From assembly GCA_016185525.1 (NCBI GenBank), contig JACPNK010000006.1, positions 22,728 to 86,727 on the forward strand: a stretch of 64,000 nucleotides of DNA. Reading direction: 5' to 3'. Every line of letters starts with the position of its first letter. Position 1 is the stretch's first letter. Under the pieces are notes generated by a model. It was not told where the DNA came from. It did no database searches and saw only the letters and a list, made by a program, of their open reading frames with translations. The DNA is from Candidatus Yanofskybacteria bacterium (GTDB lineage Bacteria > Patescibacteriota > Minisyncoccia > 2-02-FULL-40-12 > IGHO2-12-FULL-4). Positions 7,600 to 63,910 of the stretch are shown piece after piece. The position numbers and the translations under genes are program-made.

Positions 7600-7667
7600 G
7601 TAAGTTTAAAGTCTAAAGACTAATGACTAAGGCCAGAAAAATCTTGCTTTAGACTTTAGTCTGTTCA

Positions 7668-10600: not shown

Positions 10601-11267
10601 TTCTGATGTTGAAGGACGGGTTGTGGAGATTAAAGAAAGTGCCCGCCAGCACTCCATCAATATTGTTACAACTACAGGCGAGGAGAAATCTTTTACCGCT
10701 CCTTTGGGTCAGGTTTTATGGATCAAAGAGGGCGATGAAATTGTTCCCGGCCAGCAGTTGACTGAAGGACATGTTGACCCCAAAGAGCTTTACACAATTA
10801 CCAAAGACATAAATGCTGTTGCCAACTACATTATTCGTGAAGTTCAAAGCATATATTTTGCCACTGGTGAAGGAATTAACAACAAACACGTTGAGCTGAT
10901 TGTCAGGCAGATGTTTTCCCGAGTCAGGATTATTGATGCCGGAGACACTGATTTGCTTCCGGGAGACATTGTTGAAAGAAGACAGTTCAGAGAGCAAAAC
11001 GATCTTGTCAAAAAAGAAGGCGGAACAGAGGCAACATTTGAGTCTTTTGTTTTGGGCATCAGTAAAGTCGCTCTCTCTACCGAAAGCTTCTTGTCTGCCG
11101 CTTCTTTTCAGGAAACAGCCAGAGTTTTGATTGATTCGGCGATTGTCGGCAAAGAGGACAAACTTCGAGGCCTTAAAGAGAATGTCATTATCGGTCGTCT
11201 TATTCCTGCAGGAACCGGTTATAACGTTGACTTTCAAGATGTGCCGCAGGAACCGGTACAGGAATAG
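7668..11267 (+). CDS. rpoC: DNA-directed RNA polymerase subunit beta'
   Basis: 1199 aa; NADFDGDQMAVHLP catalytic motif; zinc-finger CGKYKRIRYKGIICDRCG. Confidence 0.97.
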   Translation: MNNFTSLKLKIASPEEILEWSYGEVTKPETINYRTQKPERDGLFSEAIFGPVKDFECYCGKYKRIRYKGIICDRCGVEVTRSIVRRERMGHIRLASPVAHIWFLRGVPSKVAVVLDVSLVELERVIYFASYIVMRVNEELKAEAMKKIENEFRSKIKNAKDENEAIRLKEQKDYEKNNLRAIKKYQILSELDFRDLSLKYGEVFEAGIGAEAIKKLLGEIELNDLVKATDNELKATDNPNIRKKMIRRLKLLRGMIRNNIRPEWMILDILPVIPPALRPMVQLDGGRFATADLNDLYRRVINRNNRLKHLLELHAPEVITKNEKRMLQEAVDALIDNSMRRGQTMISASTGQKRALKSLADMLKGKTGRFRQNLLGKRVDYSGRSVIVVGPNLDIDQCGLPKHMALELFKPFVVHKLISAGLAHNIKSANRLIDQQIPEVWQALEESIKDKLVLLNRAPTLHRLSVQAFRPSLIEGKAITIPALPTSAFNADFDGDQMAVHLPLTNEAQKEAKDLMLASHGILKPSTGEPVAAPSKDVVFGCFYLTHPGDNLLGEGKTFSSEEEALLSHNNGFTDLRAKIKIKTDKKIDANELLENGFITTTVGRIIFNRGLPEDFRFVNKTLTKGQLKALEAELLDERGEEETVKFLNTAKNLGFHYATISGVSFAVEDLRAVSDKQSMLDEADQKIEEGRGLYDQGLLTEYERKSKAIEVWTDVKSRLEKMVKQNFKNDDSVFMLVESGARGSWATVNQLAGMRGLFANPAGELIELPVKGSFKEGLSVLEYFLSTHGARKGLVDTALNTAQAGYLTRRLVDVAQDVVVKEKDCKDKDGYVMLTEDGKQIGESLGKRIKGRVILEDVLDKDGEVVIKKGTLISKDLAAKIDSLNLDKIRIRSIIACRAKDGICQYCYGYDLSKNRLVEVGEAVGIVTAQAIGEPGTQLTMRTFHTGGVAGGGDITMGLPRVEEIFEARTPSAKALVSDVEGRVVEIKESARQHSINIVTTTGEEKSFTAPLGQVLWIKEGDEIVPGQQLTEGHVDPKELYTITKDINAVANYIIREVQSIYFATGEGINNKHVELIVRQMFSRVRIIDAGDTDLLPGDIVERRQFREQNDLVKKEGGTEATFESFVLGISKVALSTESFLSAASFQETARVLIDSAIVGKEDKLRGLKENVIIGRLIPAGTGYNVDFQDVPQEPVQE

Positions 11268-12386: not shown

Positions 12387-14576
12387 ATGTCCAAGAAGAA
12401 AGAATGGAAAAAGAGAGAGTCGGCAACGGCAGAGTCCAAGCCTCTTTTTGACTTGTCGCAAGAGACCAAGAACGGTATTTGGGGGGTATTGAGTTTTGGC
12501 TTGGCAATCTTAGCGACTCTGGCTTTTTTTGATAAAGCCGGACGGGCGGGGGATATTTTTAATAATTTAGCAAATTCACTTTTTGGCTGGGGAATGTTTT
12601 TGGTTCCGCTGGCCTTTTTAATTTTGGGAGCTTCCTTTGTAAAATCGGTTTCCAGGAAAATTTATACCAGCGCTATTTTCGGCACTTTGCTTTTTGTCCT
12701 TACTTTTTTAGCCTTGTTTTTCATTATCGGCCAAGGCGATTTTCAGGCCAGAGTTGCTCAAGGCGGATATTTGGGAGTTCTGATCGGCTTTCCGGTTCTC
12801 AAAGCTTTGAGCTTTACCTCTTCTTTAATTGTTCTGGTTTTGCTTTTGCTGGTTTCTCTTTTGATTGCTCTTAACATTTCCGTAGCCAACTTGCTTTTCA
12901 AGAAGAAAGAAGAAGATGCGCCATTACAGGATAATGTCGTGGTGAAAAGGGGGACGGAAGTGGTGGATATGAAAGAGGAGTCAAGAAAACACGAACCTGC
13001 TCCTAAAGTTGTGCCGGTTAAAAAAAGTATTGTTGACGAAGAAAAAGAGTTCGTTCTAAAAATGAGCAAATCTGGCAACTGGACTTTACCGCCGCTGGAA
13101 CTTTTACATACCGACACAGACCAGCCCCGTTCGGGAGATATCAATGCCCATGTCAATATTATCAAAAGAACTTTATCCAACTTTAACATAGAAGTGGAGA
13201 TGGGCGAGGTTTCTATCGGGCCGACTGTTACGCAATACACTTTGCGTCCGGCGGTGGGGGTCAAACTTTCAAAAATCACCACTTTACAGCCAGACTTGTC
13301 TCTGGCTTTGGCGGCCCATCCGATTAGGGTGGAAGCGCCTATTCCGGGTAAATCACTTGTGGGTATAGAAGTTCCTAACAAAAAGTTTGCCTTGGTGGGG
13401 TTAAGGAATCTGATTGATACCGATGAATTTAAAAAAGGCAATTCGGTTCTGCCTATCGGACTGGGGCGAGATGTCGCCGGTTTTCCGGTTTTTGCCAGTA
13501 TGGAAAAGATGCCTCATCTTTTGGTGGCCGGCGCTACCGGCACGGGTAAATCCGTTTGCATTAACGCGGTAATTTTATCCCTCTTATACAAGCACTCTCC
13601 AAATATTCTTAAATTTATATTTATTGACCCCAAGCGCGTTGAACTTACCGCTTACAATGGCATTCCTCACTTGGTTACTCCGACAATTGTAGACCCCAAA
13701 AAGGCCGTCAACGCCTTGAAGTGGGCGGTCAGAGAAATGGAAAAAAGATATGAATTGCTTTCGGCGGCTGGGGCTAGAGACGTTTTTTCCTATAACTCTA
13801 AAATGTCCGGCAAGAAAGATATTGAGGTTATGCCTTTCGTTGTCATAGTCATAGATGAGCTGGCCGATCTTATGGCTTCTCACGGCCGAGATATAGAGGG
13901 AGCGATTATCCGTTTGGCGCAAATGGCGCGAGCGGTTGGCATCCATCTGATTGTTTCCACTCAAAGACCCTCGGTGGAAGTTATCACCGGCCTTATCAAA
14001 GCCAATATCACTTCACGAATCGCTTTTCAGGTTGCTTCAGGTATAGACTCGCGGACGATTTTGGACTCTTCCGGTGCGGAAAAACTTTTGGGCAGAGGTG
14101 ATATGCTTTTCCAGGCAGGCGATACGGCTAAGCCGAGGCGTATTCAAGGCGCTTTTGTTTCCGAAAAAGAAGTCAAAGATGTGGTCAAGTTTATTAAGAT
14201 GCAAGCCGAACAGGCGGCTGAAGAAGGTGTTGAGGAAAACGGCAATTTGGTGATTGAGCCGGATGCAGTGGTGGCTGATACTCGCGGCGGTTCCGGCGAA
14301 GACATGGGCGACGATATGTACTTTGATGCTAAAGATGTGGTGGTGCAGGCCGGCAAAGCTTCCGCCTCTTTACTCCAGCGCAGATTACGGGTAGGCTATG
14401 CAAGAGCGGCTAGACTACTAGATCTGCTTGAAGAAAAAGGCGTGATTGGGCCGGGTGAAGGCGCCAAACCGAGAGAAGTATTTATCGCCCGTTCTAATAT
14501 GGACGCCGGCATAGGAAGAAACATTGAACCGGATGACGGCAGTATGGCTGAAGAAGCGCCGACAGAAGAAACGTAA
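12387..14576 (+). CDS. ftsK: DNA translocase FtsK/SpoIIIE
   Basis: N-terminal TM helices; Walker A GATGTGKSV; C-terminal gamma domain LLQRRLRVGYARAARLLDLLEEKGVIGP. Confidence 0.9.
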   Translation: MSKKKEWKKRESATAESKPLFDLSQETKNGIWGVLSFGLAILATLAFFDKAGRAGDIFNNLANSLFGWGMFLVPLAFLILGASFVKSVSRKIYTSAIFGTLLFVLTFLALFFIIGQGDFQARVAQGGYLGVLIGFPVLKALSFTSSLIVLVLLLLVSLLIALNISVANLLFKKKEEDAPLQDNVVVKRGTEVVDMKEESRKHEPAPKVVPVKKSIVDEEKEFVLKMSKSGNWTLPPLELLHTDTDQPRSGDINAHVNIIKRTLSNFNIEVEMGEVSIGPTVTQYTLRPAVGVKLSKITTLQPDLSLALAAHPIRVEAPIPGKSLVGIEVPNKKFALVGLRNLIDTDEFKKGNSVLPIGLGRDVAGFPVFASMEKMPHLLVAGATGTGKSVCINAVILSLLYKHSPNILKFIFIDPKRVELTAYNGIPHLVTPTIVDPKKAVNALKWAVREMEKRYELLSAAGARDVFSYNSKMSGKKDIEVMPFVVIVIDELADLMASHGRDIEGAIIRLAQMARAVGIHLIVSTQRPSVEVITGLIKANITSRIAFQVASGIDSRTILDSSGAEKLLGRGDMLFQAGDTAKPRRIQGAFVSEKEVKDVVKFIKMQAEQAAEEGVEENGNLVIEPDAVVADTRGGSGEDMGDDMYFDAKDVVVQAGKASASLLQRRLRVGYARAARLLDLLEEKGVIGPGEGAKPREVFIARSNMDAGIGRNIEPDDGSMAEEAPTEET

Positions 14577-14712
14577 ATTGACCTAATTGCTCTAATTAAC
14601 CTAATTTCTAAAAAATAACCAATGTCTAATTTTAAAATTGGGATTTAGAAATTATTTAGGTCAATTAGAAATTAGAAAAATTAGAAATTTTAATCGGAGG
14701 GATAAATATATT

Positions 14713-15765
14713 ATGGCAAAGGAAAAAAATAAAGACGGCAAAAGTGCGGTCAGTGAGAACAGTAAAAGTGCCAGCACTGAGAATAGTCGAAGTGTTGACT
14801 TGGCTGTCAAAGAAATTCAGCAAAAATACGGCGACGGGTCAATAATGAAACTGGGCGATGCTCGGAAGGTTGATGTTGACGTTATTCCGACTGGTTCAAT
14901 TTCGCTTGACCTGGCTTTGGGTGTCGGCGGTGTGCCCCGGGGAAGAATGATTGAAATTTACGGACCGGAAAGTTCCGGCAAAACCACTTTGGCTTTGCAT
15001 CTTGTGGCCGAAGTTCAAAAAATGGGCGGAACGGCGGCTTATGTGGACGCTGAACACGCTCTTGATCCGGAATATGCCGGCAGAATTGGCGTAAAAACCA
15101 AAGACTTGCTGATTTCCCAGCCAGACCATGGTGAACAGGCGTTGGAAATAGTTGAGACGCTGGTCCGCTCCGGTGGGATAGATTTGGTGGTGATTGATTC
15201 GGTTGCGGCTTTGACGCCAAGGGCGGAAATTGAAGGGGAGATGGATCAACAGCACATGGGTTTGCAGGCGCGTCTCATGTCGCATGCCCTACGCAAACTC
15301 ACCGGAATTGTTTCAAAGACTAACACCACCGTTGTTTTCATAAACCAGATCAGGCACAAAATCGGAATTATGTTTGGTAATCCGGAAACTACAACCGGTG
15401 GTTTGGCTTTAAAATTTTATTCTTCGGTTAGAATAGAAATTCGCCGGGCGGCGCAAATCCAATCGGGCGAAAAAATTATCGGTAACCGGACTAAAGCAAA
15501 AATTGTAAAAAATAAAGTGGCGGCGCCGTTCAAAGTTGCCGAGTTTGATATTTTGTACAACGAAGGCATCTCGCGTTTGGCAGACTTGGTAAATACTGGA
15601 GTTAATCTGGGCGTGGTTGCCAAATCCGGCAGTTGGTATAACTTTGGCGAACAAAAACTGGGGCAAGGGATTGAGGGTTCTCGCCAATTTCTAAAAGAAA
15701 ATCCTAAGATAGAAAAAGAAATTCTCTCAAGCGTCAAAAAAGCGGCGGCGGTCAAAGAGGCGTAA
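14713..15765 (+). CDS. recA: recombinase RecA
   Basis: [20 protein letters not shown] Walker A; RecA L1/L2 regions; GGAGG RBS upstream of the ATG at 14713 (table ORF starts earlier at 14638). Confidence 0.95.
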
Positions 15766-18537: not shown

Positions 18538-19557
18538 TCAAATTTTTATTTCCACCACGTCGCCGTCTTGGACTATGTAATCTCGGCCGACAAGTTTCAA
18601 GGTGCCGTTTTCGCGTGCTTTGCCCCACGAGCCAGCCTCCACTAACTTTTGCCAATTAATAACTTCTGCTCTAATGAAAAGTTTTTCAAAGTCAGTATGA
18701 ATAGCCCGGGAAGCTTTGGGGATAGGTGTATTTTTGGGCGCGGTCCAGGCCCGGGTTTCGTCTTCCCCCGTGGTTAAGAAGGTGATTAAATCCAGAAGCT
18801 TATAACTTTTGGAAATCAGTTCATCTAAACCGGAGTGTTCCCGGAAGACTTCTGTGAGGTATAAATCTTTTTCTTCCGGAGAGGCTTCAGACAGCAGAAG
18901 TTCAAAATTAGCGGACAAGACGACATATTGTGATTCGCCCATGGCTTTGATTAGCTCCGGTTCCGGTTGCCAGCGGTTTTTAACCTGCTCTTCCGAAGCG
19001 TTTAAAACATATATCACTTTTTTTGAAGCGAGCAGTTCCAATTCCGGCAATCCTGCCTGACCGGCAGACAGGTCTTCATTCTTGTTTTTTTTGGCCTTTC
19101 TTTTTTCTATGGATTGCAAATCGGCCAATGCTAACTCTGTCTTGATTATTTCTATGTCATGAACCGGGTCAACTTTGCTGTGGACGTGAATTATATTCTT
19201 GTCTTCAAAAACTCTTACCACATGAGCGACTGCATCCACCTCTCTGATGTTGGCCAAAAACTTATTGCCCAAACCCTCGCCTTCAGCGGCGCCTTTGATT
19301 AGTCCGGCAATGTCTATGAACTCAATTGCTGTCGGCACTATTTTTTTTGAATGAGAAAGTCCGGCTAGTATTTTCAGTCTTTCATCCGGCACCTCAACTA
19401 CGCCTACATTGGGATCAATCGTCGTAAAGGGGTAGTTGGCAATGGCTATTTGTTTTCCTGCCCCGTGGCCGCCGTCAGGCGACTTTACGGGGTTAGTTAA
19501 GGCCTTAAAGAGGGTGGATTTACCTACATTAGGCAGGCCTACGATTCCGATTTGCAT
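18538..19557 (-). CDS. ychF: ribosome-binding ATPase YchF (Obg-like GTPase family)
   Basis: [22 protein letters not shown]1 motif; C-terminal TGS-like [13 protein letters not shown]. Confidence 0.85.
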
Positions 19558-19683
19558 ATGCGGTGAATATTAGCAAAAATCCAGTAGATACGCCAATTTT
19601 TTGAGCTTGACTTTTTGCTGAAAAGGTATATGATTAAGGTATAGTTAGGATAGTTCCTTTATTTACTACTTGCCCGCTTCGAC
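19541..19683. repeat. direct repeat DR-L (ychF start + promoter region), partner at 23915-24056
   Basis: About 143 bp, roughly 93% identical to 23915-24056; includes the first 17 nt of ychF. Confidence 0.8.
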
Positions 19684-19828
19684 AAGTCGAAGACGAGGCG
19701 AGCGAGCAGTCATAGCCATAAGTTTCTGATACAAATTGGAAGTTTATTGCTATGACTGCCATTCTGGTGGTCATCGCTGCCGCATAGTGCGGCCAAAACT
19801 GCCGGCATAGCGCCGGAAGGAGGAAGTT

Positions 19829-20422
19829 ATGCGTTGGAATCCAGTTGAACAAGTACAGGATGTCGTGAACAAGTTCGGGACCGAGGAGCGCGTCAAGCGT
19901 TTCCAGTCCGGCGAGCTCGTGCTCGTGGAACGGACGGACCCTCGTGCAGTCGCGATGGTCCTCAACTTCGAGCGGAAGGTCTCGGTGGCCAGCCGCCGGT
20001 TCGTCACCGGCGAGAGCTTCACCAAGAGCAATCCCAAGGTGAAGTTTGGCCACATTGACGAGAAGGTCGTCAAGCTTTTTGGCAAGAGCCAGGACGTGCC
20101 GGCCGGCGAGCTGGCCACACACACGCTCTTACTGCCTAAGCACGATCCCGAAATCATGGTCGCTCTTGGACCTCAGTCCAGGCGTTTCATCAAGCTGGGC
20201 CAGTTCTACCAGTTGATCGAAGCGCAGGGCCAGGGCCAGGAAGGCTCCCTTCTCGTCAACGGATGCGCGAACATTGCGTACATTCTTGACGAGAACGGCG
20301 CGCCTTGGGCGGTCAGCGCGTACTGGGGCCCGATCGATGGCGACTGGCGCATGTGCGTTAACTCGGTTGCCCGCCTGCACGCGTGGCTTGCCGGCAGCCG
20401 GGTTCTCTCGCAAGTCGGATAA
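19829..20422 (+). CDS. DGR target protein 1 (variable C-terminus, C-type-lectin/FGE-like fold presumed)
   Basis: GC-rich (~60%) ORF with GGAGG RBS; its last ~35 codons are VR1. Confidence 0.75.
   Translation: MRWNPVEQVQDVVNKFGTEERVKRFQSGELVLVERTDPRAVAMVLNFERKVSVASRRFVTGESFTKSNPKVKFGHIDEKVVKLFGKSQDVPAGELATHTLLLPKHDPEIMVALGPQSRRFIKLGQFYQLIEAQGQGQEGSLLVNGCANIAYILDENGAPWAVSAYWGPIDGDWRMCVNSVARLHAWLAGSRVLSQVG
20304..20410 (+). repeat. DGR variable region VR1
   Basis: 107 bp aligned with TR1 (20701-20807); nearly all mismatches fall where TR1 has A (AAC codons in TR become GGC/CGC/TGC etc.). Confidence 0.8.
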
Positions 20423-20427
20423 GAACT

Positions 20428-20482
20428 GGGTTCCTTGGGAACTTGGTTCTTGGGCCGGCAGTAGCTTCAACGCTGTTGCCGG
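20428..20482 (+). other. GC-rich hairpin downstream of VR1 (DGR cruciform/stem-loop)
   Basis: GGGCCGGCAGTAGCTTCAACGCTGTTGCCGGCTC inverted repeat. Confidence 0.5.
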
Positions 20483-20700
20483 CTCATTTTTATTTCTATA
20501 AAATACAACTTGGATATTAGGCGAATCTGCTGATCTCCAATTGGATATCAGCGGCCGAACTCTAAGCGCGCATTCAGATTGCTATCGGAGCTTAAAAACG
20601 AAGATACTTGGTGCGGAACACTATGTGAGTCAGCTCACGAATTCGATGCAGTCCCGAGAGTATTCAACGGACAGTGGTAATGGTGGTGTTTCGCACAGAG

Positions 20701-20807
20701 CTTGGGCGGTCAACGCGAACTGGAACCCGAACTATGGCGACTGGAACATGAACGTTAACTCGGTTGCCAACCTGAACGAATGGAATGCCGGCAACCAGGT
20801 TCTCTCG
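20701..20807 (+). repeat. DGR template region TR1
   Basis: Asn-codon (AAC) rich: NWNPNYGDWNMNVNSVANLNEWNAGNQ; downstream hairpin AAACTCC/GGAGTTT and a CCAGCCGCC motif. Confidence 0.8.
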
Positions 20808-20820
20808 AAATTCTCTTCGT

Positions 20821-21168
20821 TCAAAAACTCCTTTGCGGAGTTTTTGTTTGTTTTTGCCAGCCGCCGAGCATTTTGCCTATCTCATTCAGATGATTCGACA
20901 ATGTTACATATTTCTTTACATCAAGTATTTCTATTTCCCATGCAATCTGTAATATAAATTTCAACATATCAAATGAGTCCGAGGCCTTGGCAAGATAAAA
21001 TCCTTTTTGTTCACGGTTTTTATGAGCTGCAATAAATAAATGTTCCGTGGTTTCGATAAACAGGTTATCAATTTTTAGACCAATAGTATATCGATTGATT
21101 TTCTCTAATCTAATAAAATATTCATGCCAAACTTTGTAAACCACAATCAACTTTTGGATAATCGGCAA
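20821..21168 (-). CDS. avd: Avd-like accessory variability determinant (four-helix-bundle / 23S rRNA IVS protein family)
   Basis: 115 aa; ...KFILQIAWEIEILDVKKYVTLSNHLNEIGKMLGGWQK is the typical IVS/Avd C-terminus; immediately adjacent to TR1 and the RT. Confidence 0.65.
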   Translation of the reverse strand: MPIIQKLIVVYKVWHEYFIRLEKINRYTIGLKIDNLFIETTEHLFIAAHKNREQKGFYLAKASDSFDMLKFILQIAWEIEILDVKKYVTLSNHLNEIGKMLGGWQKQTKTPQRSF

Positions 21169-21232: not shown

Positions 21233-22177
21233 TTGGAAAATTTACTGGAATCCTGGAAAGAGTTCCTGAAAGGCAAACGCAAGAGAAAGGATGTCCAGGA
21301 GTTTGGCCTTTTTCTGATGGATAATATTATAGGCCTGCACAACGATCTTGACAATCATACATATAACCACGGGCCATATCAAGCGTTTCGCATAAATGAT
21401 CCCAAACCGAGACAGATACACAAGTCATTGGTCCGTGACCGGTTGCTCCACCATGCTATTTATCGTCAACTCTATCCGTTTTTTGATCGAATGTTTACTG
21501 CCGACTCCTTCTCATGCCGACTTGGCAAGGGGACACACAAAGCATTAAACAGGTTCAGAAGTTTTGCATTCAAAGTCAGCAAAAACAACACCAGGACGTG
21601 TTGGATTTTGAAATGTGATATCAAGAAGTTCTTTGAGAATATTGACCACGAGGTTTTGCTTAGCATCTTAAAAGAATACATCCGTGACCGGAACACTATC
21701 TGGCTTTTAGAGAGAGTGATTTACAGCTTCTCATCCGCTCCAGGTAGGGGATTGCCTCTCGGCAATCTCACCTCGCAGTTGTTCGTGAATATCTATATGA
21801 ACGAATTTGATCAGTTTGTGAAGCACAATTTGAAGGCAAAATACTATATCAGATATGCCGATGACTTTGTGGTCTTGTTTCAAGACAAATCTTGGCTCGA
21901 AGAGATGCTTCCTAAAATGGGTGACTTTCTGGAAGAAAGATTAAAACTTGAACTTCATCCAGACAAGGTTTTTATCAAAACGTTTGCTTCGGGAGTTGAC
22001 TTCCTTGGCTGGGTTCACTTTCCAGATCACAGAGCATTGAGAACGACTACCAAGAAGCGGATGCTTAAAAGGATTAAGGCAAAACAGGATATTAGCACAA
22101 CCAAATCTTATTTGGGACTTATTAGTCATGGAAATGCTAAAAAACTAGAAAAAGAGATATTAAGGATTTCTGAATAA
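21233..22177 (+). CDS. DGR reverse transcriptase
   Basis: 314 aa; RT motifs including GLPLGNLTSQLF (DGR-specific IGxxxSQ) and YIRYADDFVVL (YADD). Confidence 0.85.
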   Translation: MENLLESWKEFLKGKRKRKDVQEFGLFLMDNIIGLHNDLDNHTYNHGPYQAFRINDPKPRQIHKSLVRDRLLHHAIYRQLYPFFDRMFTADSFSCRLGKGTHKALNRFRSFAFKVSKNNTRTCWILKCDIKKFFENIDHEVLLSILKEYIRDRNTIWLLERVIYSFSSAPGRGLPLGNLTSQLFVNIYMNEFDQFVKHNLKAKYYIRYADDFVVLFQDKSWLEEMLPKMGDFLEERLKLELHPDKVFIKTFASGVDFLGWVHFPDHRALRTTTKKRMLKRIKAKQDISTTKSYLGLISHGNAKKLEKEILRISE

Positions 22178-22182
22178 TTTCT

Positions 22183-22272
22183 GTAGAGGGGGAAGTTTTA
22201 TTGTAAACTGAAACGGGATGTATTTGAGCCGGTTATCGTCAAATCCATGTCGCATTGCGTTCCGACTATACC
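22183..22272 (+). repeat. about 90 bp junction element, copy 1 (copies at 23811-23914 and 25389-25507)
   Basis: Shared GGAGGAAGTTTTAYTGTRAAC...TGTCGYATTGCGTTC blocks. Confidence 0.6.
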
Positions 22273-22406
22273 AATCTGGAGCATTTTGGTAATTTATCAT
22301 TTTAAACCCACCTTCTCAAGTTAACTTGCTATCATCAGGATCTTATGATTTAATTCCGATATAATTACTAATGTAAATTTAGTGAGTGTTTGGTAAATTA
22401 TTATTT

Positions 22407-22976
22407 ATGGAAAACGGCTATTTTTATTCACGAAGAGAAAACGTCAACGATTTGTACTATGATGCTATGGAATTGCTTCATGGAAACATTGAGGAGGCCA
22501 GGAAAGCTGAAAAATTATTAGCAAAAGCTCTTGGCCTGGATCCTAATAATATCCAAACGCATATTGGTTTTGCGCATTTGTACGGACGTCTTAAAAATAA
22601 AAAGAAAACAGAAGAACATATCAAGAAGGCCTACGAAGAAACAACTAAGAAATTTCCGGTTTGGCCCAAGCGTATGGAGTGGGGCGACATGGATAATCGG
22701 GCGTATATGAGAGCGATACAATACCGCGCTGATCTTTACGCTGATGATGGAGAAAAAGAAAAAGCCGTAAGTTTATATCGGCTGCTTCTTAAGTTGAATC
22801 CCAACGATAACCAGGGTGCTAGGTACACCATCTCTGGTGTCTATGCCGGAATAAGCGGAAAAGAAATTAATAAAATGTTTGACGAGTGCAACAGGCGACA
22901 AAATTGGGCTAGGCTTGAAGACCTGATCAAAAAACAAAATGCCAAACACAAGTTTTGGAAAGAACCAAGATTTTGA
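22407..22976 (+). CDS. TPR repeat protein
   Basis: TPR-like helical repeats (AEKLLAKALGLDPNN..., LYRLLLKLNPNDNQG); table ORF starts at a GTG at 22386. Confidence 0.5.
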   Translation: MENGYFYSRRENVNDLYYDAMELLHGNIEEARKAEKLLAKALGLDPNNIQTHIGFAHLYGRLKNKKKTEEHIKKAYEETTKKFPVWPKRMEWGDMDNRAYMRAIQYRADLYADDGEKEKAVSLYRLLLKLNPNDNQGARYTISGVYAGISGKEINKMFDECNRRQNWARLEDLIKKQNAKHKFWKEPRF

Positions 22977-23019
22977 GAAGATTGTTGATATCAAATTTCC
23001 TACATGGTATATAATAAAA

Positions 23020-23358
23020 ATGAGTACAATTCATGAGTACCTCATTGATACAGAAGATTATAGAGGCAAGCGGGTAATCTTTACTGAAGCTAAGCGTCTA
23101 GAAAAGTCAGCCCAGCATGCCGAATTAAACAATAAGCAGTTTCTAAAAAATATTGAGCCGACCATTAAAGATCCCGAAGAGGTCTGGCCAGACTATAGTG
23201 ACAAAAATAGAAAAGCATGTTATTATAAGAAATACTCAGCCACTACTTATGTTAAGGTGGTAATTTGGATATATGACAGTCCTTGTCGAGTAGTTACTGC
23301 TTATGAAACTGATAAAATTAAGGAAATGCTATATCCAGAATTAAATCGTCTTAAATAA
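23020..23358 (+). CDS. hypothetical protein
   Basis: ORF; internal ATG with A-rich upstream region, since the table start at 22939 overlaps the previous gene. Confidence 0.4.
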   Translation: MSTIHEYLIDTEDYRGKRVIFTEAKRLEKSAQHAELNNKQFLKNIEPTIKDPEEVWPDYSDKNRKACYYKKYSATTYVKVVIWIYDSPCRVVTAYETDKIKEMLYPELNRLK

Positions 23359-23368
23359 TTATAAAAAC

Positions 23369-23791
23369 ATGACAACTAACATTAAACAAAATAGAGAGTT
23401 TATTGACCTAGCCTCAAATCTCCAAGGATTTATTCAGAAAAACGGTTGGATTAGTAGATACGATCTTGAAAGTGATGCCTTTTCAATTACCACCCCGAAT
23501 TTATCGGAGGACGCTAGAATTCGCTATTTCGATGATGAGATAGCTCTTTATGTTACGAATGACAATAAGATTGAGGGTATCTTTATGGAATACTTCAAGA
23601 GTAATTTTGTCCAACACCATAAAGACCTCAAGCCTGTTTTAGAAAATATAGAAAAAGAACAAGGAAAGAAAGAAATCGGTCTTGTCCAATTAGGTAAAGA
23701 TAAAATACAAAAACTCGCTCCTGACATACAGGAAGCCCTCCAGGTGCTTCTGGCAGAGAAGCTTAATCTAGGATTAAACCAAGCTCGATAG
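23369..23791 (+). CDS. hypothetical protein
   Basis: 140 aa ORF. Confidence 0.45.
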   Translation: MTTNIKQNREFIDLASNLQGFIQKNGWISRYDLESDAFSITTPNLSEDARIRYFDDEIALYVTNDNKIEGIFMEYFKSNFVQHHKDLKPVLENIEKEQGKKEIGLVQLGKDKIQKLAPDIQEALQVLLAEKLNLGLNQAR

Positions 23792-23810
23792 TAGCCTGCT
23801 CAAATAATTG

Positions 23811-23914
23811 CTAAGGATTACCAAATAACTTCTGGACAGGAGGTAATTTTTTTTGAAACTAAAAGGTATCAGTTTTACCGGCATATTACCATAGCTGTAT
23901 CGCATTGCGTTCAT
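23811..23914 (+). repeat. about 90 bp junction element, copy 2
   Basis: CTAAGGATTACCAAATAACTT...TCGCATTGCGTTCAT. Confidence 0.6.
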
Positions 23915-24056
23915 ACGATTCCTATTTGCATATGCGGTGAATATTAGCAAAAATCCAGTAGATACACCAGTTTTTGAACTTGACTTTTTGCTGAAAAGGT
24001 ATATAACTAAAGTATAGTTAGTATAGTTCCTTTATTTACTACTTGCCCGCTTCGAC
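23915..24056. repeat. direct repeat DR-R (remnant ychF promoter + first 6 codons MQIGIV then stop)
   Basis: Matches 19541-19683. Confidence 0.8.
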
Positions 24057-24112
24057 TCCTACTACCGTCTCGTTCGTCCTCGCAGGTAGCAAAAACCTGA
24101 GACTCTTGGTTC

Positions 24113-24361
24113 TTGGACCCCGTTCAGTTTACTGAACGGGGTCGTTTTCTTTGTAGCTTTTCAACTTTAAGCACTTTTACAGGCCTTGCCTGTCAGAATA
24201 CAATGAAATACCTCGCAAACCTGTGCAATCAGACGACCAATTCAAGAAAGTTCTGGCCCAAAACAATGCTTTACCACAGCAATGACCCTGAAGGCGTTGA
24301 AATAACGAGAGCCTTTACGACAAGTTTTGAAAAAGAAACTCTGCCTAAATATAGTGAGTAA
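24113..24361 (+). CDS. hypothetical protein (weak)
   Basis: 82 aa ORF only. Confidence 0.25.
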   Translation: MDPVQFTERGRFLCSFSTLSTFTGLACQNTMKYLANLCNQTTNSRKFWPKTMLYHSNDPEGVEITRAFTTSFEKETLPKYSE

Positions 24362-24543
24362 CTGGGTAGGGTAATCTGCTCTAATCAAAATAAAACCAAC
24401 CAACAAAAAAAACACCCCTCCGAGCCATATGTTGATATCTAATTTTCTATATGGTATATAATGAAGTTAAGGAAAATTTATAGTATAGAGCGTTGGTTAT
24501 AGGTAATGTTGACTTTTCTAGTTTACTAATTTATAATATTGCT

Positions 24544-25388
24544 ATGGTAAAAAATGTCAAAAATACTCTTCATATCGGTATTAAACAACTCCTAAAATTA
24601 GATGATAAGTTGGCGAAGCTGCGTAAGCCTACATCTATTGAGGAGGAGTCTTTGCATGCCCAACACAGATTTGAAGCGACATATTACTCAAACAAGCTTG
24701 AGGGGAATAAACTAACGAAAGAAGAGGCCAGAAAAGCTATTCTATTTAAGTAATTAATGAAACGTCCACTTAATAAACGTGAGTCAGACATATTAGAAGA
24801 AGAGGCCACTGGGAAGCCTCTTCTTCTTTACATAGACTTATCAAACGCTTAGTTCGTAAAAGACTTCCTTTAGAGCTGAGGTTTATTAAAACTGCACACA
24901 AAACTATTTTTGATATTGCTAAACAACCAGAAATCGGAGGCGTGTATCGAAACGACAACAGTCCAGAGTTAAAAAGAATAGATGGAACTACTCTGCCAAT
25001 GACAGATTGGCCCTTAATATCTAACGCAATGGCAGAACTTGATTCAGAACTTAGAGAAAAAACTAAAAATCTTGTGCATCCGAAAACTGAGCAAGGATAT
25101 TCTGAATTGATAATGCTAGCAACTAGACTTTCTCATAAACTGGTCTGTATACACCCCTTTAGAAATGGGAATGGAAGAGCGTCTAGATTATTATTAAATG
25201 CTATTCTTTTAAGAGCGGGCTTATCAGAAATTGCCATTAAAAAATCAAAACCAACATATCTCCGTGCCATGAGACAAGCTGATGATGGTGACTTTTCTCT
25301 TCTAGAGAACCTTGTTGTCAACGGGTTGGTCGAAACTAAAAAAATAAATTACTCAAGTATCCATTTGTCTTACCCATCAGGTCGCTAG
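24544..25388 (+). pseudogene. fic: Fic family protein, disrupted (in-frame TAA at 24754 plus a frameshift before 24850)
   Basis: N-terminal part has SNKLEGNKLTKEEA; C-terminal part has IHPFRNGNGRASR (HPFx[DE]GNGR). The two parts lie in different frames; promoter TTGACT-17-TATAAT at 24509-24537. Confidence 0.7.
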
Positions 25389-25507
25389 CTAAGGATTACC
25401 AAATAACTTTTGAGCAGGAGGAAGTTTTACTGTGAAACGGAATGGCATGAATTTAACTGATGAGCCGCTTGAGCTATGTCGTATTGCGTTCATACAATTC
25501 CGATTTT
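25389..25507 (+). repeat. about 90 bp junction element, copy 3
   Basis: Starts CTAAGGATTACCAAATAACTT like copy 2; ends GTCGTATTGCGTTCATACAATTCCGATTT, resembling the ychF 5' end. Confidence 0.6.
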
Positions 25508-25670
25508 TAACATGTTCAGATTGTAGCAGAAAACTATGGAAAACCAAGAAAATAAAATTTAAAAACCGCCGTTACGGCGGGTCAAAAGCTTAGTCGCTCG
25601 AGTCATAATTTTGATTAAGCACCGCTTGTCAGCTTTTTACATTTTAGCGGAACAGGTTTAACATAAGAGA

Positions 25671-26477
25671 GTGCAAAAGCCATGGTACACGATAGAGGAA
25701 AAACACAAAAATAAGAAGCTGATTGTTTTTGATTTAGACGGTACGCTGACCGAGAGCAAAAAGGAGATAGACCAAGAGATGGCCTTGCTTTTGGCTAAAC
25801 TGCTTGAAAAAAAAGAAGTTGCCGTGGTTGGCGGCGGAAAATATGAGTTGTTTCAGAGTCAACTTTTGGCGAGGCTGAAAGTGCCGGAATCCTCACTGAA
25901 AAAACTTTTTATATTTCCAACTTCAGCCTCGTCCTTTTACAGTTATGTTAGGGGTTGGAAAAAAGTATATTCCAAAGAACTTTCAGAGGAAACACGGGCC
26001 AGAATTAAGAAGGCTTTTGAAGAAGTTTTCAAGGAAGTAAACTATAAACATCCCGAAAAAACTTATGGAGAGGTTATTGAAGACAGGGGTTCACAGGTTA
26101 CATTTTCCGTTTTTGGCCAGGACTTAGTTAAGGTTTTGGGCAAAAAAGGAGTTGAAATGAAAAAAGAATGGCGGGACAAAAATACTAGACTCAAATTAAG
26201 GCTCGCAAAGATGCTTCAAAAAAAACTGCCCGATTTGGAAGTCCGCGCGGCGGGCTATACTTCGATTGATGTAACTCAAAAGGGGATAGACAAGGCTTAT
26301 GGTTTAAGGCAAATAAAAAAGCATCTCGGAATTAAATTCAGCGAGATGCTGTTTGTAGGCGATGCTTTGTTTAAGGGCGGCAACGACTACGCTGCTCTTA
26401 AAACCGGCGTAGAATGTGTCGCGGTAAAGGGGCCGGAAGAAGCCAAGAAGATTATCAAATTCCTATTTTTTCTTTGA
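25671..26477 (+). CDS. HAD-IIB family hydrolase, phosphomannomutase-like
   Basis: LIVFDLDGTLTE motif I; KGIDKAYGL; FVGDALFKGGNDY. Confidence 0.65.
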   Translation: MQKPWYTIEEKHKNKKLIVFDLDGTLTESKKEIDQEMALLLAKLLEKKEVAVVGGGKYELFQSQLLARLKVPESSLKKLFIFPTSASSFYSYVRGWKKVYSKELSEETRARIKKAFEEVFKEVNYKHPEKTYGEVIEDRGSQVTFSVFGQDLVKVLGKKGVEMKKEWRDKNTRLKLRLAKMLQKKLPDLEVRAAGYTSIDVTQKGIDKAYGLRQIKKHLGIKFSEMLFVGDALFKGGNDYAALKTGVECVAVKGPEEAKKIIKFLFFL

Positions 26478-27435
26478 TTTCTTTCAAGGTACTGCTTGCA
26501 ATTACTCTAGCTTTTTCTTCTGACTCTGTCAATACCTTATCAACATAGTCCATGTTGTTCTTGAGTTCACTGTATTTCTTTTGAAAAGGCTTTAGAAAAT
26601 CTACAACGACTTCAGCTAAGTCATTTTTAAAGTCCGCGTAAGTTTTGCCTTCATAGTCTTTTTCAATTTCTTCTATCGTTCTGCCGGATAGTAACTGGTA
26701 AATTGTGAGTAAATTGGAAATAGCCGGTTTTTTGTCCTCGTCATATTTTATTTCTTTGCCCGAATCAGTTACCGCCTTTTTTATTTTTTCTCTGACAACC
26801 TCCGGATTATCAGATAAGGCAATGCCCTCGTCGCCGGTTTTGGACATTTTTTTAGCCGGATCCTGCAGGGACATAACTCGGGCGCCTTCAGTAAGGTGTG
26901 GCTTGACCGTCTGGAAAGTTTCGCCGAAAAGATGGTTGAACTTTCTGGCAATTTCGTTTGTCAGGTCAATGTGGGGGAGCTGGTCGTCGCCGACTGGCAC
27001 AAGGTTTGATTTGTAAATTAAAATATCAGCGGCCATGAGCACCGGGTAGTCCAAAATTCCCATATGGGTGTACTTGCCCTGCGTCTGTTCTATTTTTTCC
27101 TTGTAAGTGGGTAAGCGGTCCAGCCAGCTTACCGGAGTTATTGTGTTAAAAATCCAAGCAAGCTCGGTATGCTGTGGAACTTTTGATTGGCGGATTAGTA
27201 TGGATTTTTCCGGATCAACGCCGGCGGCCATATAGTCCAAAACCGCTTCCATAACTTGCTGATGATAGGTTTTGGGGTCAAAAGGCGTGGTGATGCCGTG
27301 GTAGTCCACAACAGCAAAAACAGTCCTTTCCGTGTCCGGACTTTTTTGCAGTTCTACCCAATTTTTTATGGCGCCCAGATAGTTGCCTAGATGCAATTTA
27401 CCGGAAGGCCGTATACCGGAAAAAATTTTATTCAT
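26455..27435 (-). CDS. trpS: tryptophan--tRNA ligase
   Basis: IFSGIRPSGKLHLGNYLGAI (HIGH region) and KMSKT. Confidence 0.9.
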   Translation of the reverse strand: MNKIFSGIRPSGKLHLGNYLGAIKNWVELQKSPDTERTVFAVVDYHGITTPFDPKTYHQQVMEAVLDYMAAGVDPEKSILIRQSKVPQHTELAWIFNTITPVSWLDRLPTYKEKIEQTQGKYTHMGILDYPVLMAADILIYKSNLVPVGDDQLPHIDLTNEIARKFNHLFGETFQTVKPHLTEGARVMSLQDPAKKMSKTGDEGIALSDNPEVVREKIKKAVTDSGKEIKYDEDKKPAISNLLTIYQLLSGRTIEEIEKDYEGKTYADFKNDLAEVVVDFLKPFQKKYSELKNNMDYVDKVLTESEEKARVIASSTLKEIKEKIGI

Positions 27436-27510
27436 ACAACTAAGAATACAGCATTAAAAGTTTTTAGACAATTTTACTGCGACCTGCTATAATTATTATA
27501 ATGGAATTTA

Positions 27511-27606
27511 ACCAACCAACCAACCAACCAACCAACCAACCAACCAACCAACCAACCAACCAACCAACCAACCAACCAACCAACCAACCAACCAACCAAC
27601 CAACCT
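27511..27606. repeat. (CCAA)n tetranucleotide microsatellite, about 24 units
   Basis: Uninterrupted accaacc... run. Confidence 0.95.
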
Positions 27607-27881
27607 AAATTTTTAGAAGTTTGTTCGGTTCTACTATACAGATATACAGACCGTGATAAACGGTTTTTTTATTTTTCGGTTAACCAAAACCAGAATTGAT
27701 TTTTTAGTTCTCGTGACAATTTATATGAATTAGCATGACTTAAAACACCGAGATACGTTTGCAACGATTGTTCAAGAGTTTCAGTAGAAATAAGGTCTTG
27801 CTTTTGGCGGCTGGATAAAATCAACCCGCGATTGTTAAAGAAATATCCTCCAAGCGGAGGATATTTCTTGTAAGAGAGAAA

Positions 27882-27998
27882 GAAGTTCCGGGAGGCACCA
27901 ACGCCCACGTTGTTGTTGCGATTGCCGTTCCAGTTATTGATGTTGAGGCCGTTCTCGTCGAAGTTGCCGACACACGAAACGTTGTCAGCGTTGGCCGA
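27882..27998 (-). repeat. DGR template region TR2 (minus-strand sense)
   Basis: Sense strand encodes FFSANADNVSCVGNFDENGLNINNWNGNRNNNVGVGASRNF (AAC rich); 117 bp aligned with VR2. Confidence 0.75.
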
Positions 27999-28297: not shown

Positions 28298-28338
28298 GAG
28301 CCTTCGGCGCTGCGAAAAAAAATTCGCGCCGAAGGCTC
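28298..28338. terminator. strong hairpin just downstream of VR2 / target 2 stop
   Basis: GAGCCTTCGGCGC-loop-GCGCCGAAGGCTC (13 bp stem). Confidence 0.6.
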
Positions 28339-28355: not shown

Positions 28356-29210
28356 TCAGAACTTCCGGGAGGCACCAACGCCCACGTTGCCGGCGCGACC
28401 GCCGTCCCAGCTATCGATGCGGAGGCCGCGCCCGTCGAAGCGGCCGACACACGAAACGTCGCCAGCGAAGGCCGAGTCGGTCTTCACTGTCCGCTCCGCG
28501 CAGGCTGCCCATTTGGATCCGTTGGGACGAACACCAGTCTTACGGAAGACGAGGATGTCCTTGGTCGTTTCCATTATCGTCGATGGCACTTCGTACTCGG
28601 GCGGAAGCATCGCCACCTGCTCTTCGGGCGTCTTGTTCGTCGAGTTAGGAACGATCTCCGTATGGAGCAGGTAATAGCGAAGCCGCATGGTCGCCACATC
28701 GGTGTGGGGCTGGCCTCCGTGCCAGGGGTTGCTGTTGAAGTAGAACTTCGGCTGGCCCGTTGCCGGATGCAACTGAAGCCACTTGGCCACCGTGAGAGGC
28801 GAACCGTTGATGGCGGTCAGGCCCAGGAATGCGAAGTGGCAGTCCTTCACCACCTTGCCGCAGAGCGGGCAGGTGGAATTGAGGATGTCCTCACCCCACG
28901 GGAACTTTCCGGCGTCGCGGATCTGCTTCTTCGTGAACTTGGCGTCGTAGTAGCTCATCCAGTCGGCAACATCGAAAATGTTGCGACCGAGAACCATACG
29001 AGCCATGCGCGATTCGATAGAACCGATGAGGCCTTTTCGCAACATCGCCTGAGCGATGCGGCGAGTGTACTCGCTGTCGGTGCGGAAGAGATCGAAGAGA
29101 TCGCGGGGATTGCCTCCCTCACTGGCAATCGCTTTCTCAAGCGACGCCACGCTTTCCTCGAACTCACCCTTGGTCATGGTCCAGAGACCGCTTGTCTTGG
29201 CTTGTGTCAT
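28356..29210 (-). CDS. DGR target protein 2 (variable C-terminus)
   Basis: GC-rich ORF; ATG at 29210 with GGAG RBS (the longer ORF to 29279 is unlikely); C-terminus DSAFAGDVSCVGRFDGRGLRIDSWDGGRAGNVGVGASRKF is VR2. Confidence 0.7.
   Translation of the reverse strand: MTQAKTSGLWTMTKGEFEESVASLEKAIASEGGNPRDLFDLFRTDSEYTRRIAQAMLRKGLIGSIESRMARMVLGRNIFDVADWMSYYDAKFTKKQIRDAGKFPWGEDILNSTCPLCGKVVKDCHFAFLGLTAINGSPLTVAKWLQLHPATGQPKFYFNSNPWHGGQPHTDVATMRLRYYLLHTEIVPNSTNKTPEEQVAMLPPEYEVPSTIMETTKDILVFRKTGVRPNGSKWAACAERTVKTDSAFAGDVSCVGRFDGRGLRIDSWDGGRAGNVGVGASRKF
28359..28475 (-). repeat. DGR variable region VR2
   Basis: Differs from TR2 almost only at positions that are A in the TR2 sense strand (T on plus). 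Confidence 0.75.
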
Positions 29211-29480
29211 AACACATCTCCTTTTTTTGTCGGTTTGCTCTCCATGTCCTTTAGGGACTCTTGAGAGCGGATGCCCCATGCCGTGGGGCTGCGGTCCTGC
29301 CTACCGGCAGGCAGGCTTGTCTCAGAAGTTGAGACAAGTATGCTGGAAACCATTGTTTAGGCATCCAAAATGCTTGTCTCAAGTAGAACCTTATTGTAAG
29401 GAACTACATCATAATTATATCATCTTGTAAGTGTGCCTGTCAATAGGGTATTTTACTCGGGACTAGGGAATGGACTGGGT

Positions 29481-63638: not shown

Positions 63639-63910
63639 TCCCCGGTAGCTCAGCGGTAGAGCGGCTCGCTGTGAAATAACGCAGCTACCTAGAGAAATCT
63701 AGGATGAAAAACTTTGGGATAACGGTGAAACCTTTTTTAAAATGGTAACACCGTGGGAACCACGTAAAATGCTAAGGCATCACGTGGGCGCCGTAGAGAC
63801 TAGATACCGAAGCACCCAACAGTAGGGTGGTGATATAGTCCATCCCACTACGAAAGTAGTGGACAAATGTAACGAGAAGGTCGTAGGTTCGATCCCTACC
63901 CGGGGAGCCA
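63639..63910 (+). tRNA. tRNA (tentatively Asn, anticodon GUU after splicing) interrupted by a group I intron
   Basis: 5' exon TCCCCGGTAGCTCAGCGGTAGAGCGGCTCGCTGT; 3' exon TAACGAGAAGGTCGTAGGTTCGATCCCTACCCGGGGAGCCA; acceptor halves pair perfectly. Confidence 0.6.
63673..63869 (+). ncRNA. group I intron (197 nt) in the tRNA anticodon loop
   Basis: Follows a U in the exon and ends in G; contains the R-like GTAGAGACTAGA and S element GATATAGTCC. Confidence 0.55.

Follow-up and report, generated by a model that had tools for sequence, protein, structure and literature searches.

The 64,000-nt stretch of contig JACPNK010000006.1 analysed here (the window; overall GC content 0.428) belongs to a Candidatus Yanofskybacteria metagenome-assembled genome (MAG) and carries two diversity-generating retroelement (DGR) cassettes, whose target genes differ sharply in base composition from the surrounding DNA. 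The window is chromosomal and contains the 3' end of a 23S rRNA gene and a 5S rRNA gene (1-260), tRNAs and housekeeping genes; no integrase gene or tRNA was found beside either cassette in the window. Cassette 1 is complete, with the order target gene (T1), hairpin, template repeat (TR1), accessory variability determinant gene (avd, antisense) and reverse transcriptase (RT) gene. T1 (19829-20422, + strand; stop codon at 20420-20422) encodes a variable protein of 197 aa with a C-type-lectin/FGE fold. It is preceded by a putative sigma-70-like promoter recognised by sequence match (TTGACT-16-TATGAT; 19607-19634, +) and by a structured 5' leader of about 190 nt (19641-19828, +; GC 0.484), the extent of which was inferred from the promoter position. 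The variable repeat (VR1; 20304-20416, +; GC 0.681) lies in frame at the 3' end of T1 and is 81% identical to TR1 (20701-20813, +; GC 0.531), with 19 of 21 mismatches at TR adenines. A GC-rich hairpin with a 15-bp stem, followed by a T-run, is located 3' of VR1 (20451-20486, +). The avd gene (20821-21168, -; GC 0.330), antisense between TR1 and the RT gene, matched the bAvd-like Pfam model PF22296 (48.6 bits, cutoff 40; E = 1.2e-12), and the RT of 314 aa (21233-22177, +; GC 0.404, GC at third codon positions (GC3) 0.47) matched Pfam RVT_1 (E = 3.9e-25). The ORF at 20541-20957 was rejected as Avd: it has no family match and represents TR1 read in the same codon phase as VR1 in T1, and was therefore taken as a non-gene. 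In the database, the exact proteins carry the label hypothetical protein and are assigned to a Candidatus Yanofskybacteria MAG.

RTs of the DGR clade are marked by [LIV]GxxxSQ in place of the QGxxxSP of group II introns, together with YxDD. The RT of cassette 1 contains LGNLTSQ at residue 176 and YADD at residue 208, with G177-Q182 invariant among 12 related RTs, and scored under cutoff with group II intron maturase, retron and Drt models. It groups with other RTs of the Candidate Phyla Radiation (CPR), at 63-79% identity across 80 genome loci, and the antisense avd arrangement was seen in about 87 related loci. The target protein displays the VR on a C-type-lectin fold, which along with Ig-like folds is characteristic of DGRs, and the GC-rich IMH region with an inverted repeat 3' of the VR is represented in both cassettes by the hairpins. 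The locus is thus a genuine CPR-type DGR. As sequence traces, the VR/TR differences at 19-20 adenines in the two cassettes point to past mutagenic retrohoming only.

Cassette 2 lies on the minus strand. Its target gene T2 (28356-29210, -; stop codon at 28356-28358) encodes 284 aa (longest ORF to 29279), comprising an N-terminal helical domain and a C-terminal C-type-lectin/FGE fold. Upstream lie a putative sigma-70 promoter of full consensus (TTGACA-18-TATAAT, 12/12 positions, with TG; 29414-29443, -) and a structured 5' leader conserved in homologs (29211-29407, -; RNAalifold, 11 homologs). VR2 (28358-28475, -; GC 0.703) is in frame at the 3' end of T2 and is 82% identical to TR2 (27881-27998, -; GC 0.551); 20 of the 21 mismatches are at TR adenines. 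The GC-rich hairpin 3' of VR2 has a perfect 13-bp stem (28298-28338). Elsewhere, T2 homologs are accompanied about 950 nt downstream by an RT of their own (RT2), which is 46-49% identical to the window RT (48% between RT1 and RT2). The window retains no more of RT2 than its final 34 codons (27705-27806, -; tblastn with the RT2 of locus L081, residues 293-326, 82% identity, E = 1.8e-11), and homology to the intact L081 cassette (L081:6185-8095) ends about 78 nt beyond TR2, so that avd2 and RT2 residues 1-292 (approximately 1.2 kb) have been deleted. T2 itself is intact, and VR2 would be frozen unless RT1 acts on it in trans. Near the deletion scar, between the TrpRS gene and the RT2 remnant, there is a perfect (AACC)x24 microsatellite (27510-27605). 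The ORF at 26455-27435, considered as a second RT, is TrpRS.

T1 and T2 form the two highest GC peaks of the window at sliding-window sizes of 200, 300, 600 and 900 nt (z = 3.8-4.65), with island borders that match the ORF borders. GC content is 0.606 for T1 (0.64, 0.40 and 0.78 at the first, second and third codon positions) and 0.600 for T2 (0.591 for the longest-ORF version). The excess is greatest at synonymous positions: GC3 reaches 0.778 in T1 and about 0.74-0.77 in T2, versus 0.432 +/- 0.054 (maximum 0.511) in 43 other ORFs of the window. The enrichment remains when the VR is excluded, and the N-terminal, non-lectin domain of T2 is as GC-rich as the remainder. An original prediction, made from the letters of this stretch, had called both targets islands of about 60% GC in DNA of about 40% GC, and both the window scan and the comparison of codon usage bear this out. 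It had further described targets and TRs as GC-rich relative to all flanking genes and had treated the cassette as the deviating unit; targets and TRs do stand out, but the RT and avd of cassette 1 are not GC-rich, and the spacers are at 0.46-0.47, so "cassette" is the wrong unit. The suggestion that the antisense ORF at 28662-29264 (+) inside T2 arises purely from composition also proved sound: it has no family match, its open stretches match those of synonymous-codon shuffles (p about 0.6), and its length varies between 87 and 284 codons among homologs.

Codon choice accounts for most of the deviation. From host genes to T1 and T2 combined, the share of AAA among Lys codons falls from 0.71 to 0.10, of TTT among Phe codons from 0.78 to 0.09, of TAT among Tyr codons from 0.60 to 0.10 and of AGA among Arg codons from 0.36 to 0.00, while CTC among Leu codons rises from 0.06 to 0.46; the codon usage of RT and avd is that of the host. 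A is the most depleted base at third positions, by about 3-fold (0.08-0.10 versus about 0.30 elsewhere), with T reduced about 1.6-fold. The target proteins are enriched in Gly, Ala, Arg, Trp and Cys, and GC is somewhat raised at first and second codon positions. Recoding T1 and T2 with host codon usage yielded a GC content of 0.485-0.486, compared with 0.60-0.61 observed and a background of 0.43, which attributes approximately one third of the excess to protein composition and two thirds to synonymous choice. Translational selection was rejected as the cause, given that long, presumed housekeeping ORFs of the window (e.g. 4441-11267 and 12387-15765) have a GC3 of only 0.44-0.47.

The same pattern recurs across the CPR. 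In the 80 CPR loci retrieved by their related RTs, TR/VR pairs were located by self-BLAST combined with an adenine-mismatch filter, a detector which recovers both known pairs of the window. This yielded 56 targets from 55 loci with hosts of GC 0.34-0.60. Target GC3 exceeded the mean of the other ORFs of the locus in 55 of 56 cases (sign test, p = 1.6e-15) and every other ORF of the locus in 47, with a mean ΔGC of +0.11 and a mean ΔGC3 of +0.20. When 42 loci were anchored at the start of the RT, the resulting meta-profile showed flat flanks, a plateau of +0.08 to +0.15 exactly across the target ORF, a spacer at baseline, a smaller peak at the TR, and an RT 0.03-0.09 under the locus mean; in the T1-type meta-profile the excess climbs mildly toward the VR. 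RT GC content follows that of the host (slope 0.92, r = 0.86), whereas target GC content outside the VR is nearly independent of it (slope 0.18, r = 0.08). Within the T2 family, 36 metagenome loci have a target GC of 0.58-0.61 and GC3 of 0.73-0.80 in hosts of GC 0.34-0.48, and the adjacent RT2 genes have a GC3 of 0.30-0.41. Among twelve T1 homologs obtained by exact look-up, GC3 spans 0.64-0.88, against a host GC3 of 0.32-0.58. The remotest T2 homolog found (L109:4133-4936; 43% identity) is not GC-rich (GC 0.43, GC3 0.39, host 0.35); its contig stops 127 nt later.

For comparison with phage-type DGRs, the same pipeline was applied to 80 viral DGR loci (RT 35-62% identical), giving 56 targets, mostly of about 350 aa. 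VR (0.65) and TR (0.57) are GC-rich in every setting. The gene bodies of 54 phage-type targets outside the VR showed no enrichment (ΔGC3 +0.03, p = 0.13), nor did the 150 codons upstream of the VR (+0.02). L118 and L122 are the clear exceptions, with RTs among those nearest to the CPR clade. These IMG/VR contigs carry CPR-like DGRs with the strongest islands observed (target GC3 0.83 versus 0.28 and 0.77 versus 0.39, respectively) and are either CPR phages or CPR chromosomal fragments misclassed as viral. The whole-gene GC effect is thus a feature of this CPR clade's short stand-alone targets and is neither a universal property of DGRs nor an artefact of the detector. A compositional constraint linked to TR/VR had been offered in the original prediction as the alternative to recent acquisition. 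The constraint is real, but this wording is too narrow, since the whole ORF including the N-terminal domain of T2 is affected, and possession of a TR/VR pair is not sufficient, the phage-type gene bodies being host-like. Two further candidates were discarded. Spread over a fixed distance from the VR does not fit a T2 plateau of 850 nt alongside a long CPR target (L056, 646 aa) enriched only over its last ~80 codons, and the lectin domain per se does not fit the equal enrichment of the T2 N-terminal domain or the phage lectin domains without enrichment.

To distinguish decay from equilibrium, synonymous positions were fitted with a two-state (GC- versus AT-ending), continuous-time maximum-likelihood (ML) model, homogeneous and on a fixed neighbour-joining (NJ) tree, in which root composition and equilibrium GC3 (GC3*) are separate parameters. 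For the T2 family (non-VR part, n = 25), GC3* was 0.69 (95% confidence interval about 0.64-0.73) at a current GC3 of 0.73; stationarity was not rejected (p = 0.19), and a host-like value of 0.45 was rejected by 33 log-likelihood (lnL) units. In the six genomes that also carry RT2, GC3* was 0.76 for T2 and 0.33 for RT2. The T1 family (n = 14) gave 0.68, with 0.45 rejected by 13.5 lnL units, and for the five RT-linked T1 cassettes GC3* was 0.77 (stationary, p = 0.83) compared to 0.40 for RT1 of the same cassettes. Across target fits, the host-like value was rejected by 11.6-33 lnL units. Target and RT, about 1 kb apart, evolve to opposite compositional equilibria. The scaled strength required to shift GC3 from 0.46 to 0.76, calculated from window and L081 values, is approximately 1.3.

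The residence time of T2 was assessed with L081, a close relative (RNase J 95% identical at the amino acid level) in which T2 occupies the same place beside RNase J. Synonymous divergence (pS) between window and L081 is 0.447 for RNase J and 0.383 for the adjoining T2 (non-VR), and GC3 in the window and L081 is 0.758 and 0.746 for T2 and 0.471 and 0.459 for RNase J. T2 has thus descended vertically together with RNase J until synonymous sites were about half saturated, and no drop in its GC is visible. Over the family as a whole, pS reaches 0.73 (saturation, 0.74), and the T2 homologs recovered all come from hosts of GC 0.34-0.48, none of them GC-rich. DGRs also lie near YchF, TrpRS or RNase J genes in several deeply diverged genomes (TrpRS 48-71% identical). 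A syntenic pair of target loci (TIM-target-...-PGK) differs in DGR content: L203:5001-7382 keeps TR and RT, while L205:5001-5747 lacks TR, avd and RT, and its target directly adjoins PGK. GC3 is 0.76 in L203 and 0.64 in L205, with 9 GC-to-AT and 4 AT-to-GC changes in the former and 19 and 2 in the latter (Fisher test, p = 0.17), which hints that maintenance may relax after loss of the DGR. The orphan targets L204 and L206 have the highest GC3 of all (0.87), and L103 has 0.76.

On longer timescales target modules are shuffled, and the mobility of T1 is real at that scale. The T2 and RT2 trees are incongruent (L081-L100: T2 88%, RT2 63% identity; L081-L106: T2 66%, RT2 82%). The non-VR or N-terminal parts of targets share only about 15-18% identity (median 15%) among loci with RTs 65% identical; these parts were too diverged to align for an RT-target co-phylogeny over the 80 loci, and the true T1 and T2 families were used instead. 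The genomic surroundings of T1 homologs differ from locus to locus: an RT is missing from some, and others have a transposase or integrase gene as neighbour. Specifically, L200:5727-6392 adjoins a Y1 (IS200/IS605-type) transposase gene with no RT nearby, and L202:3867-4760 adjoins an rve integrase gene, which suggests a way in which target modules move. In the window, a direct repeat of 145 nt (95% identical; 19540-19683 and 23914-24056) covers the 5' end of ychF together with the promoter and leader start of T1, and its second copy lies upstream of small ORFs at 24113-24753. Weaker copies, or an intergenic element of about 125 nt, occur near 22161-22287, 23812-23937 and 25390-25516, after the stops of three gene blocks. 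Repeats at gene-block ends suggest serial duplication or insertion of cassettes at the site.

Target transcripts are predicted to be unusually structured. The T1 leader has a minimum free energy (MFE) of -78.4 kcal/mol, against -54.2 +/- 4.3 for shuffled sequences (z = -5.6); two alike GC hairpins with CAUAG-type loops occur in the segment 19641-19835, just upstream of the ribosome binding site. For the T2 leader (29211-29410), RNAalifold over 11 homologs (among them L081, L083, L091, L093, L097, L100, L101, L103, L106 and L110) predicted 34 pairs, 14 of them with compensatory double changes, forming a 22-bp hairpin and two smaller ones. An Rfam search of both leaders identified no family, with nothing beyond sub-threshold hits for the T2 leader, which may represent an unannotated cis-regulatory RNA of CPR DGR targets. 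Coding sequences were compared by MFE z-score with synonymous-codon shuffles that keep protein and codon usage. Mean z was -3.5 for the T1 family (n = 13, all ≤ -1.5) and -2.7 for the T2 family (n = 11), versus -1.3 for host genes of the window (n = 14) and -1.1 (median -0.3) for 16 GC-matched CPR host genes drawn from the GC-rich loci L080, L066, L022, L024, L027, L059 and L076. Two of the 16 GC-matched control ORFs had extreme z-scores (-8.0 and -7.1). The excess is spread along the target ORFs and persists without the VR (-3.1 and -2.9). It is larger on the sense than on the antisense strand (z = -3.4 versus -1.9; paired p = 0.0015), as expected under selection on the transcript. Within the T1 coding sequence, a 10-bp stem at 20015-20046 (+) (GCUUCACC...GGUGAAGU) has synonymous positions that are invariant in 12 of 12 homologs, in contrast to synonymous sites elsewhere in T1, which are near saturation.

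Together, these data very probably reflect a maintained, gene-specific equilibrium of target composition and not a recent horizontal transfer. As the overall explanation we lean towards a stable, gene-specific GC equilibrium of the targets that may be kept by selection on the folded transcript; that such selection on a strongly folded target mRNA supplies the force, taken by itself, is a tentative proposal which we hold at somewhat below even chances. Target ORFs of the clade keep a GC of about 0.57-0.60 and a GC3 of about 0.7-0.8 in every host, with RT and avd, 0.3-1 kb away, equilibrating at or under host composition. Under the proposal, selection would act on the target mRNA, whose coding sequence is predicted to be more structured than protein and codon usage require and lies behind a long structured leader, and high GC would be a means or a correlate of keeping this mRNA folded against AT-biased mutation of the host. 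Candidate purposes are RNA stability, control of expression, or a block to reverse transcription running upstream out of the TR if target and TR are co-transcribed. A stronger version appears doubtful to us: in it, proper working of the retroelement in these cells depends on folding and high GC of the whole target transcript (leader and ORF), which are accordingly maintained at one set point whatever the host. The folded transcript could in that case serve as a roadblock or insulator confining adenine-mutagenic reverse transcription to the TR, or else could set the lifetime and translation of the variable-protein mRNA.

Several observations weigh against an equilibrium kept by selection on the transcript. 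The fit of the full T1 family is mildly non-stationary (p = 0.023), slow net GC loss is possible in some lineages, and all GC3* values carry the limit of a homogeneous two-state process on a fixed tree. The target GC3 excess ranges widely among loci, from -0.08 to +0.46. Parsimony on the T2 tree counted 194 synonymous GC-to-AT changes versus 71 AT-to-GC changes, and on the window and L081 branches the ratio was 23:3, with 17 ambiguous sites. These counts were set aside: a stationary simulation on the same tree gave 1.6-2.3:1 by bias of the method alone and so reproduces most of the T2 skew, of which the RT2 control is the mirror image; the count on short branches was 13:6, which is not significant; and with distant, GC-rich outgroups the window/L081 polarisation tends to miss ancestral A/T, which is why the ML model was used. 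With regard to structure, the difference in folding between targets and controls (Mann-Whitney p = 5e-5 to 6e-3) is overstated in its independence by the relatedness of family members. Helices within the T1 ORF are mostly invariant, with a covariation term of about 0. The step from excess structure to the cause of high GC is itself an inference, and structure could be a separate feature.

Recent acquisition of the cassette, or of both targets, from a higher-GC donor, not yet ameliorated, was the first suggestion made for this DNA. The codon-position profile of T1 indeed resembles that of a gene from a genome of about 60% GC, DGRs are known to move horizontally, T1 homologs are found in varied contexts including transposase and integrase neighbourhoods, and a 145-nt direct repeat is present at 19540-19683 and 23914-24056. 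Yet the deviation is not block-wide, with RT and avd of the same cassette host-like or AT-richer here and likewise in the 42 aligned loci; 55 of 56 related targets show such an island, over the full range of host GC; T2 is syntenic with RNase J in L081 at similar divergence with its GC3 kept; and target GC3* is 0.69-0.77, not about 0.45. On these grounds the suggestion did not survive, and we give it only a very slight probability. In another reading, targets (with TRs) are supplied time and again from a pool of high GC, for example GC-rich CPR lineages or their phages; they would be exchanged more often than RTs and lose GC slowly after each event, leaving most of them foreign-looking at any one time. 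This would account for the incongruent T2 and RT2 histories, for target N-terminal parts that share about 15-18% identity despite 65% RT identity, for orphans and varied contexts, for the continuous range of the excess, for the parsimony preference for GC-to-AT changes and for the lower GC3 of the DGR-less L205 relative to L203. It is quite unlikely in our judgement, as no T2 homolog turned up in a GC-rich host, neutral decay over the depth of the T2 family in low-GC hosts would have had to start from a GC3 that is impossible, the ML equilibrium lies far over host values, more than 50 lineages would unparsimoniously all have received their targets in the direction from high to low GC, and the excess of sense-strand RNA structure is left unexplained.

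Of the forces that could act in place, GC-biased gene conversion (gBGC) at targets as recombination hot spots, through exchange between strains under diversifying selection or repair associated with cDNA integration, is unlikely but would yield a gene-specific equilibrium, since biased mismatch repair would push GC upward much as selection does. The existence of gBGC in bacteria is debated. It predicts GC3 to be raised most, followed by GC at first and second positions, as seen, module shuffling demonstrates recombination around targets, and the excess is mildly higher toward the VR in the T1-type profile. It does not predict borders that track ORF ends with a target-TR spacer at baseline, the missing gene-body effect in phage DGR targets with the same homing, orphans that stay GC-rich without RT and TR (L204, L206 and L103), or strand-specific RNA structure. 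Collateral adenine mutagenesis by the DGR RT across the whole target gene, by way of long cDNAs or target-mRNA templates, would deplete A, the base that is in fact most depleted at third positions; a shared transcript is plausible for target and TR as neighbours on one strand, and the GC excess rises toward the VR. A-to-N changes, however, cannot produce the depletion of T and the replacement of NNT by NNC codons (as for TTT and TAT) and would counteract it, AGC is up and not down, and the effect is missing from phage DGRs whose genes are ordered alike. Hypermutation would also raise synonymous divergence, whereas T2 pS is at or under that of its neighbours, and targets without RT retain their composition; this mechanism is therefore highly improbable. 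A protein-level constraint, by which the lectin variable-protein fold needs amino acids with GC-rich codons, is compatible with the raised first and second positions and the enrichment of Gly, Ala, Arg, Trp and Cys, and explains about one third of the excess. As the explanation of the whole it has next to no chance: the largest excess is synonymous, host-codon recoding brings GC to only 0.485 and not 0.60, the non-lectin domain of T2 is equally GC-rich, and phage Mtd-type lectin domains show no enrichment in the last 150 codons before the VR (+0.02).

Beyond the cassettes, small genes of conflict-system type lie between the RT gene and a HAD hydrolase gene (22386-25388, +), all of them AT-rich (GC 0.34-0.39). 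They encode a TPR protein (22386-22976, +), a PBECR2 Barnase/EndoU/RelE-like nuclease (22939-23358, +) and a Fic/DOC protein (24942-25388, +), and several further small ORFs of this segment are unannotated. A group I intron above the Rfam gathering score (55.4 bits) is located near the 3' end of the window (63663-63862, +).

When a DGR deviates in GC content and codon usage, this is routinely taken as a sign of recent transfer (Wu et al. 2018, PMC5758913; PMC10053308). For this CPR DGR clade, atypical GC would be a misleading marker of horizontal transfer, given that the deviation is very probably maintained and concerns the target gene alone. If selection at the RNA level for DGR function holds true, the composition of targets would belong to the working parts of the DGR, and deviating GC or codon usage would no longer be evidence for horizontal transfer of DGRs. 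A GC3* of about 0.75 versus about 0.35 for two genes of one cassette, separated by about 1 kb and with this contrast repeated in over 50 lineages, constitutes an unusually clean natural case of a gene-specific force on base composition, and this target/RT contrast bears on the long debate over selection, biased conversion and mutation. Excess sense-strand structure and conserved leaders suggest an RNA layer in the expression of CPR DGR targets or in their separation from the RT. In practice, the GC3 contrast could help to locate DGR targets, including orphan and remote ones, in CPR genomes without family annotation.

With respect to known DGRs, the parts of the element are nothing new, and it is typical of CPR DGRs. 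It shares with CPR/Patescibacteria DGRs (Wu et al. 2018, PMC5758913; Roux et al. 2021, PMC8144416; a MAG survey of 2024, PMC11661182) the LGNLTSQ/YADD RT, bAvd, adenine-specific TR/VR differences, a 3' VR on a C-type-lectin target and a GC-rich hairpin. The compositional split of target and RT, the host-independent GC equilibrium of the whole ORF and the excess of transcript structure were not found in the open-access DGR surveys and mechanistic papers searched. In BPP-1 (Mtd-avd-TR-Brt) and phage-type DGRs, targets of about 350 aa have host-like bodies, whereas here the whole short ORF is enriched. The avd gene of BPP-1 lies upstream on the same strand, unlike the avd described here, which is antisense between TR and RT. 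A clade of CPR DGRs was reportedly seen by Paul and colleagues in 2017. Treponema denticola TvpA (PDB 2y3c), the variable protein of a chromosomal DGR with an FGE-type C-type-lectin fold, shows a sequence identity of 8-9%, and T1, unlike TvpA, is a minimal stand-alone lectin domain. With genomic islands recognised by atypical GC content and codon usage, an approach that Wu et al. (2018) and Sharifi and Ye (2019; PMC10053308) took to DGRs, the targets share a sharp-edged block of foreign-looking GC, GC3 and codon usage; they differ in that only the target ORFs deviate, at equilibrium, in more than 50 lineages and with vertical inheritance. The decay expected of such islands is reportedly described by the amelioration model of Lawrence and Ochman. 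A GC-favouring force in bacteria that could act on specific genes, either selection on GC or gBGC, is said to have been treated by Hershberg and Petrov in 2010, Hildebrand et al. in 2010, Raghavan et al. in 2012 and Lassalle et al. in 2015. Those forces likewise run counter to AT-biased mutation but are genome-wide or tied to recombination, whereas the force described here concerns one functional class of genes and has a near-constant set point across hosts.

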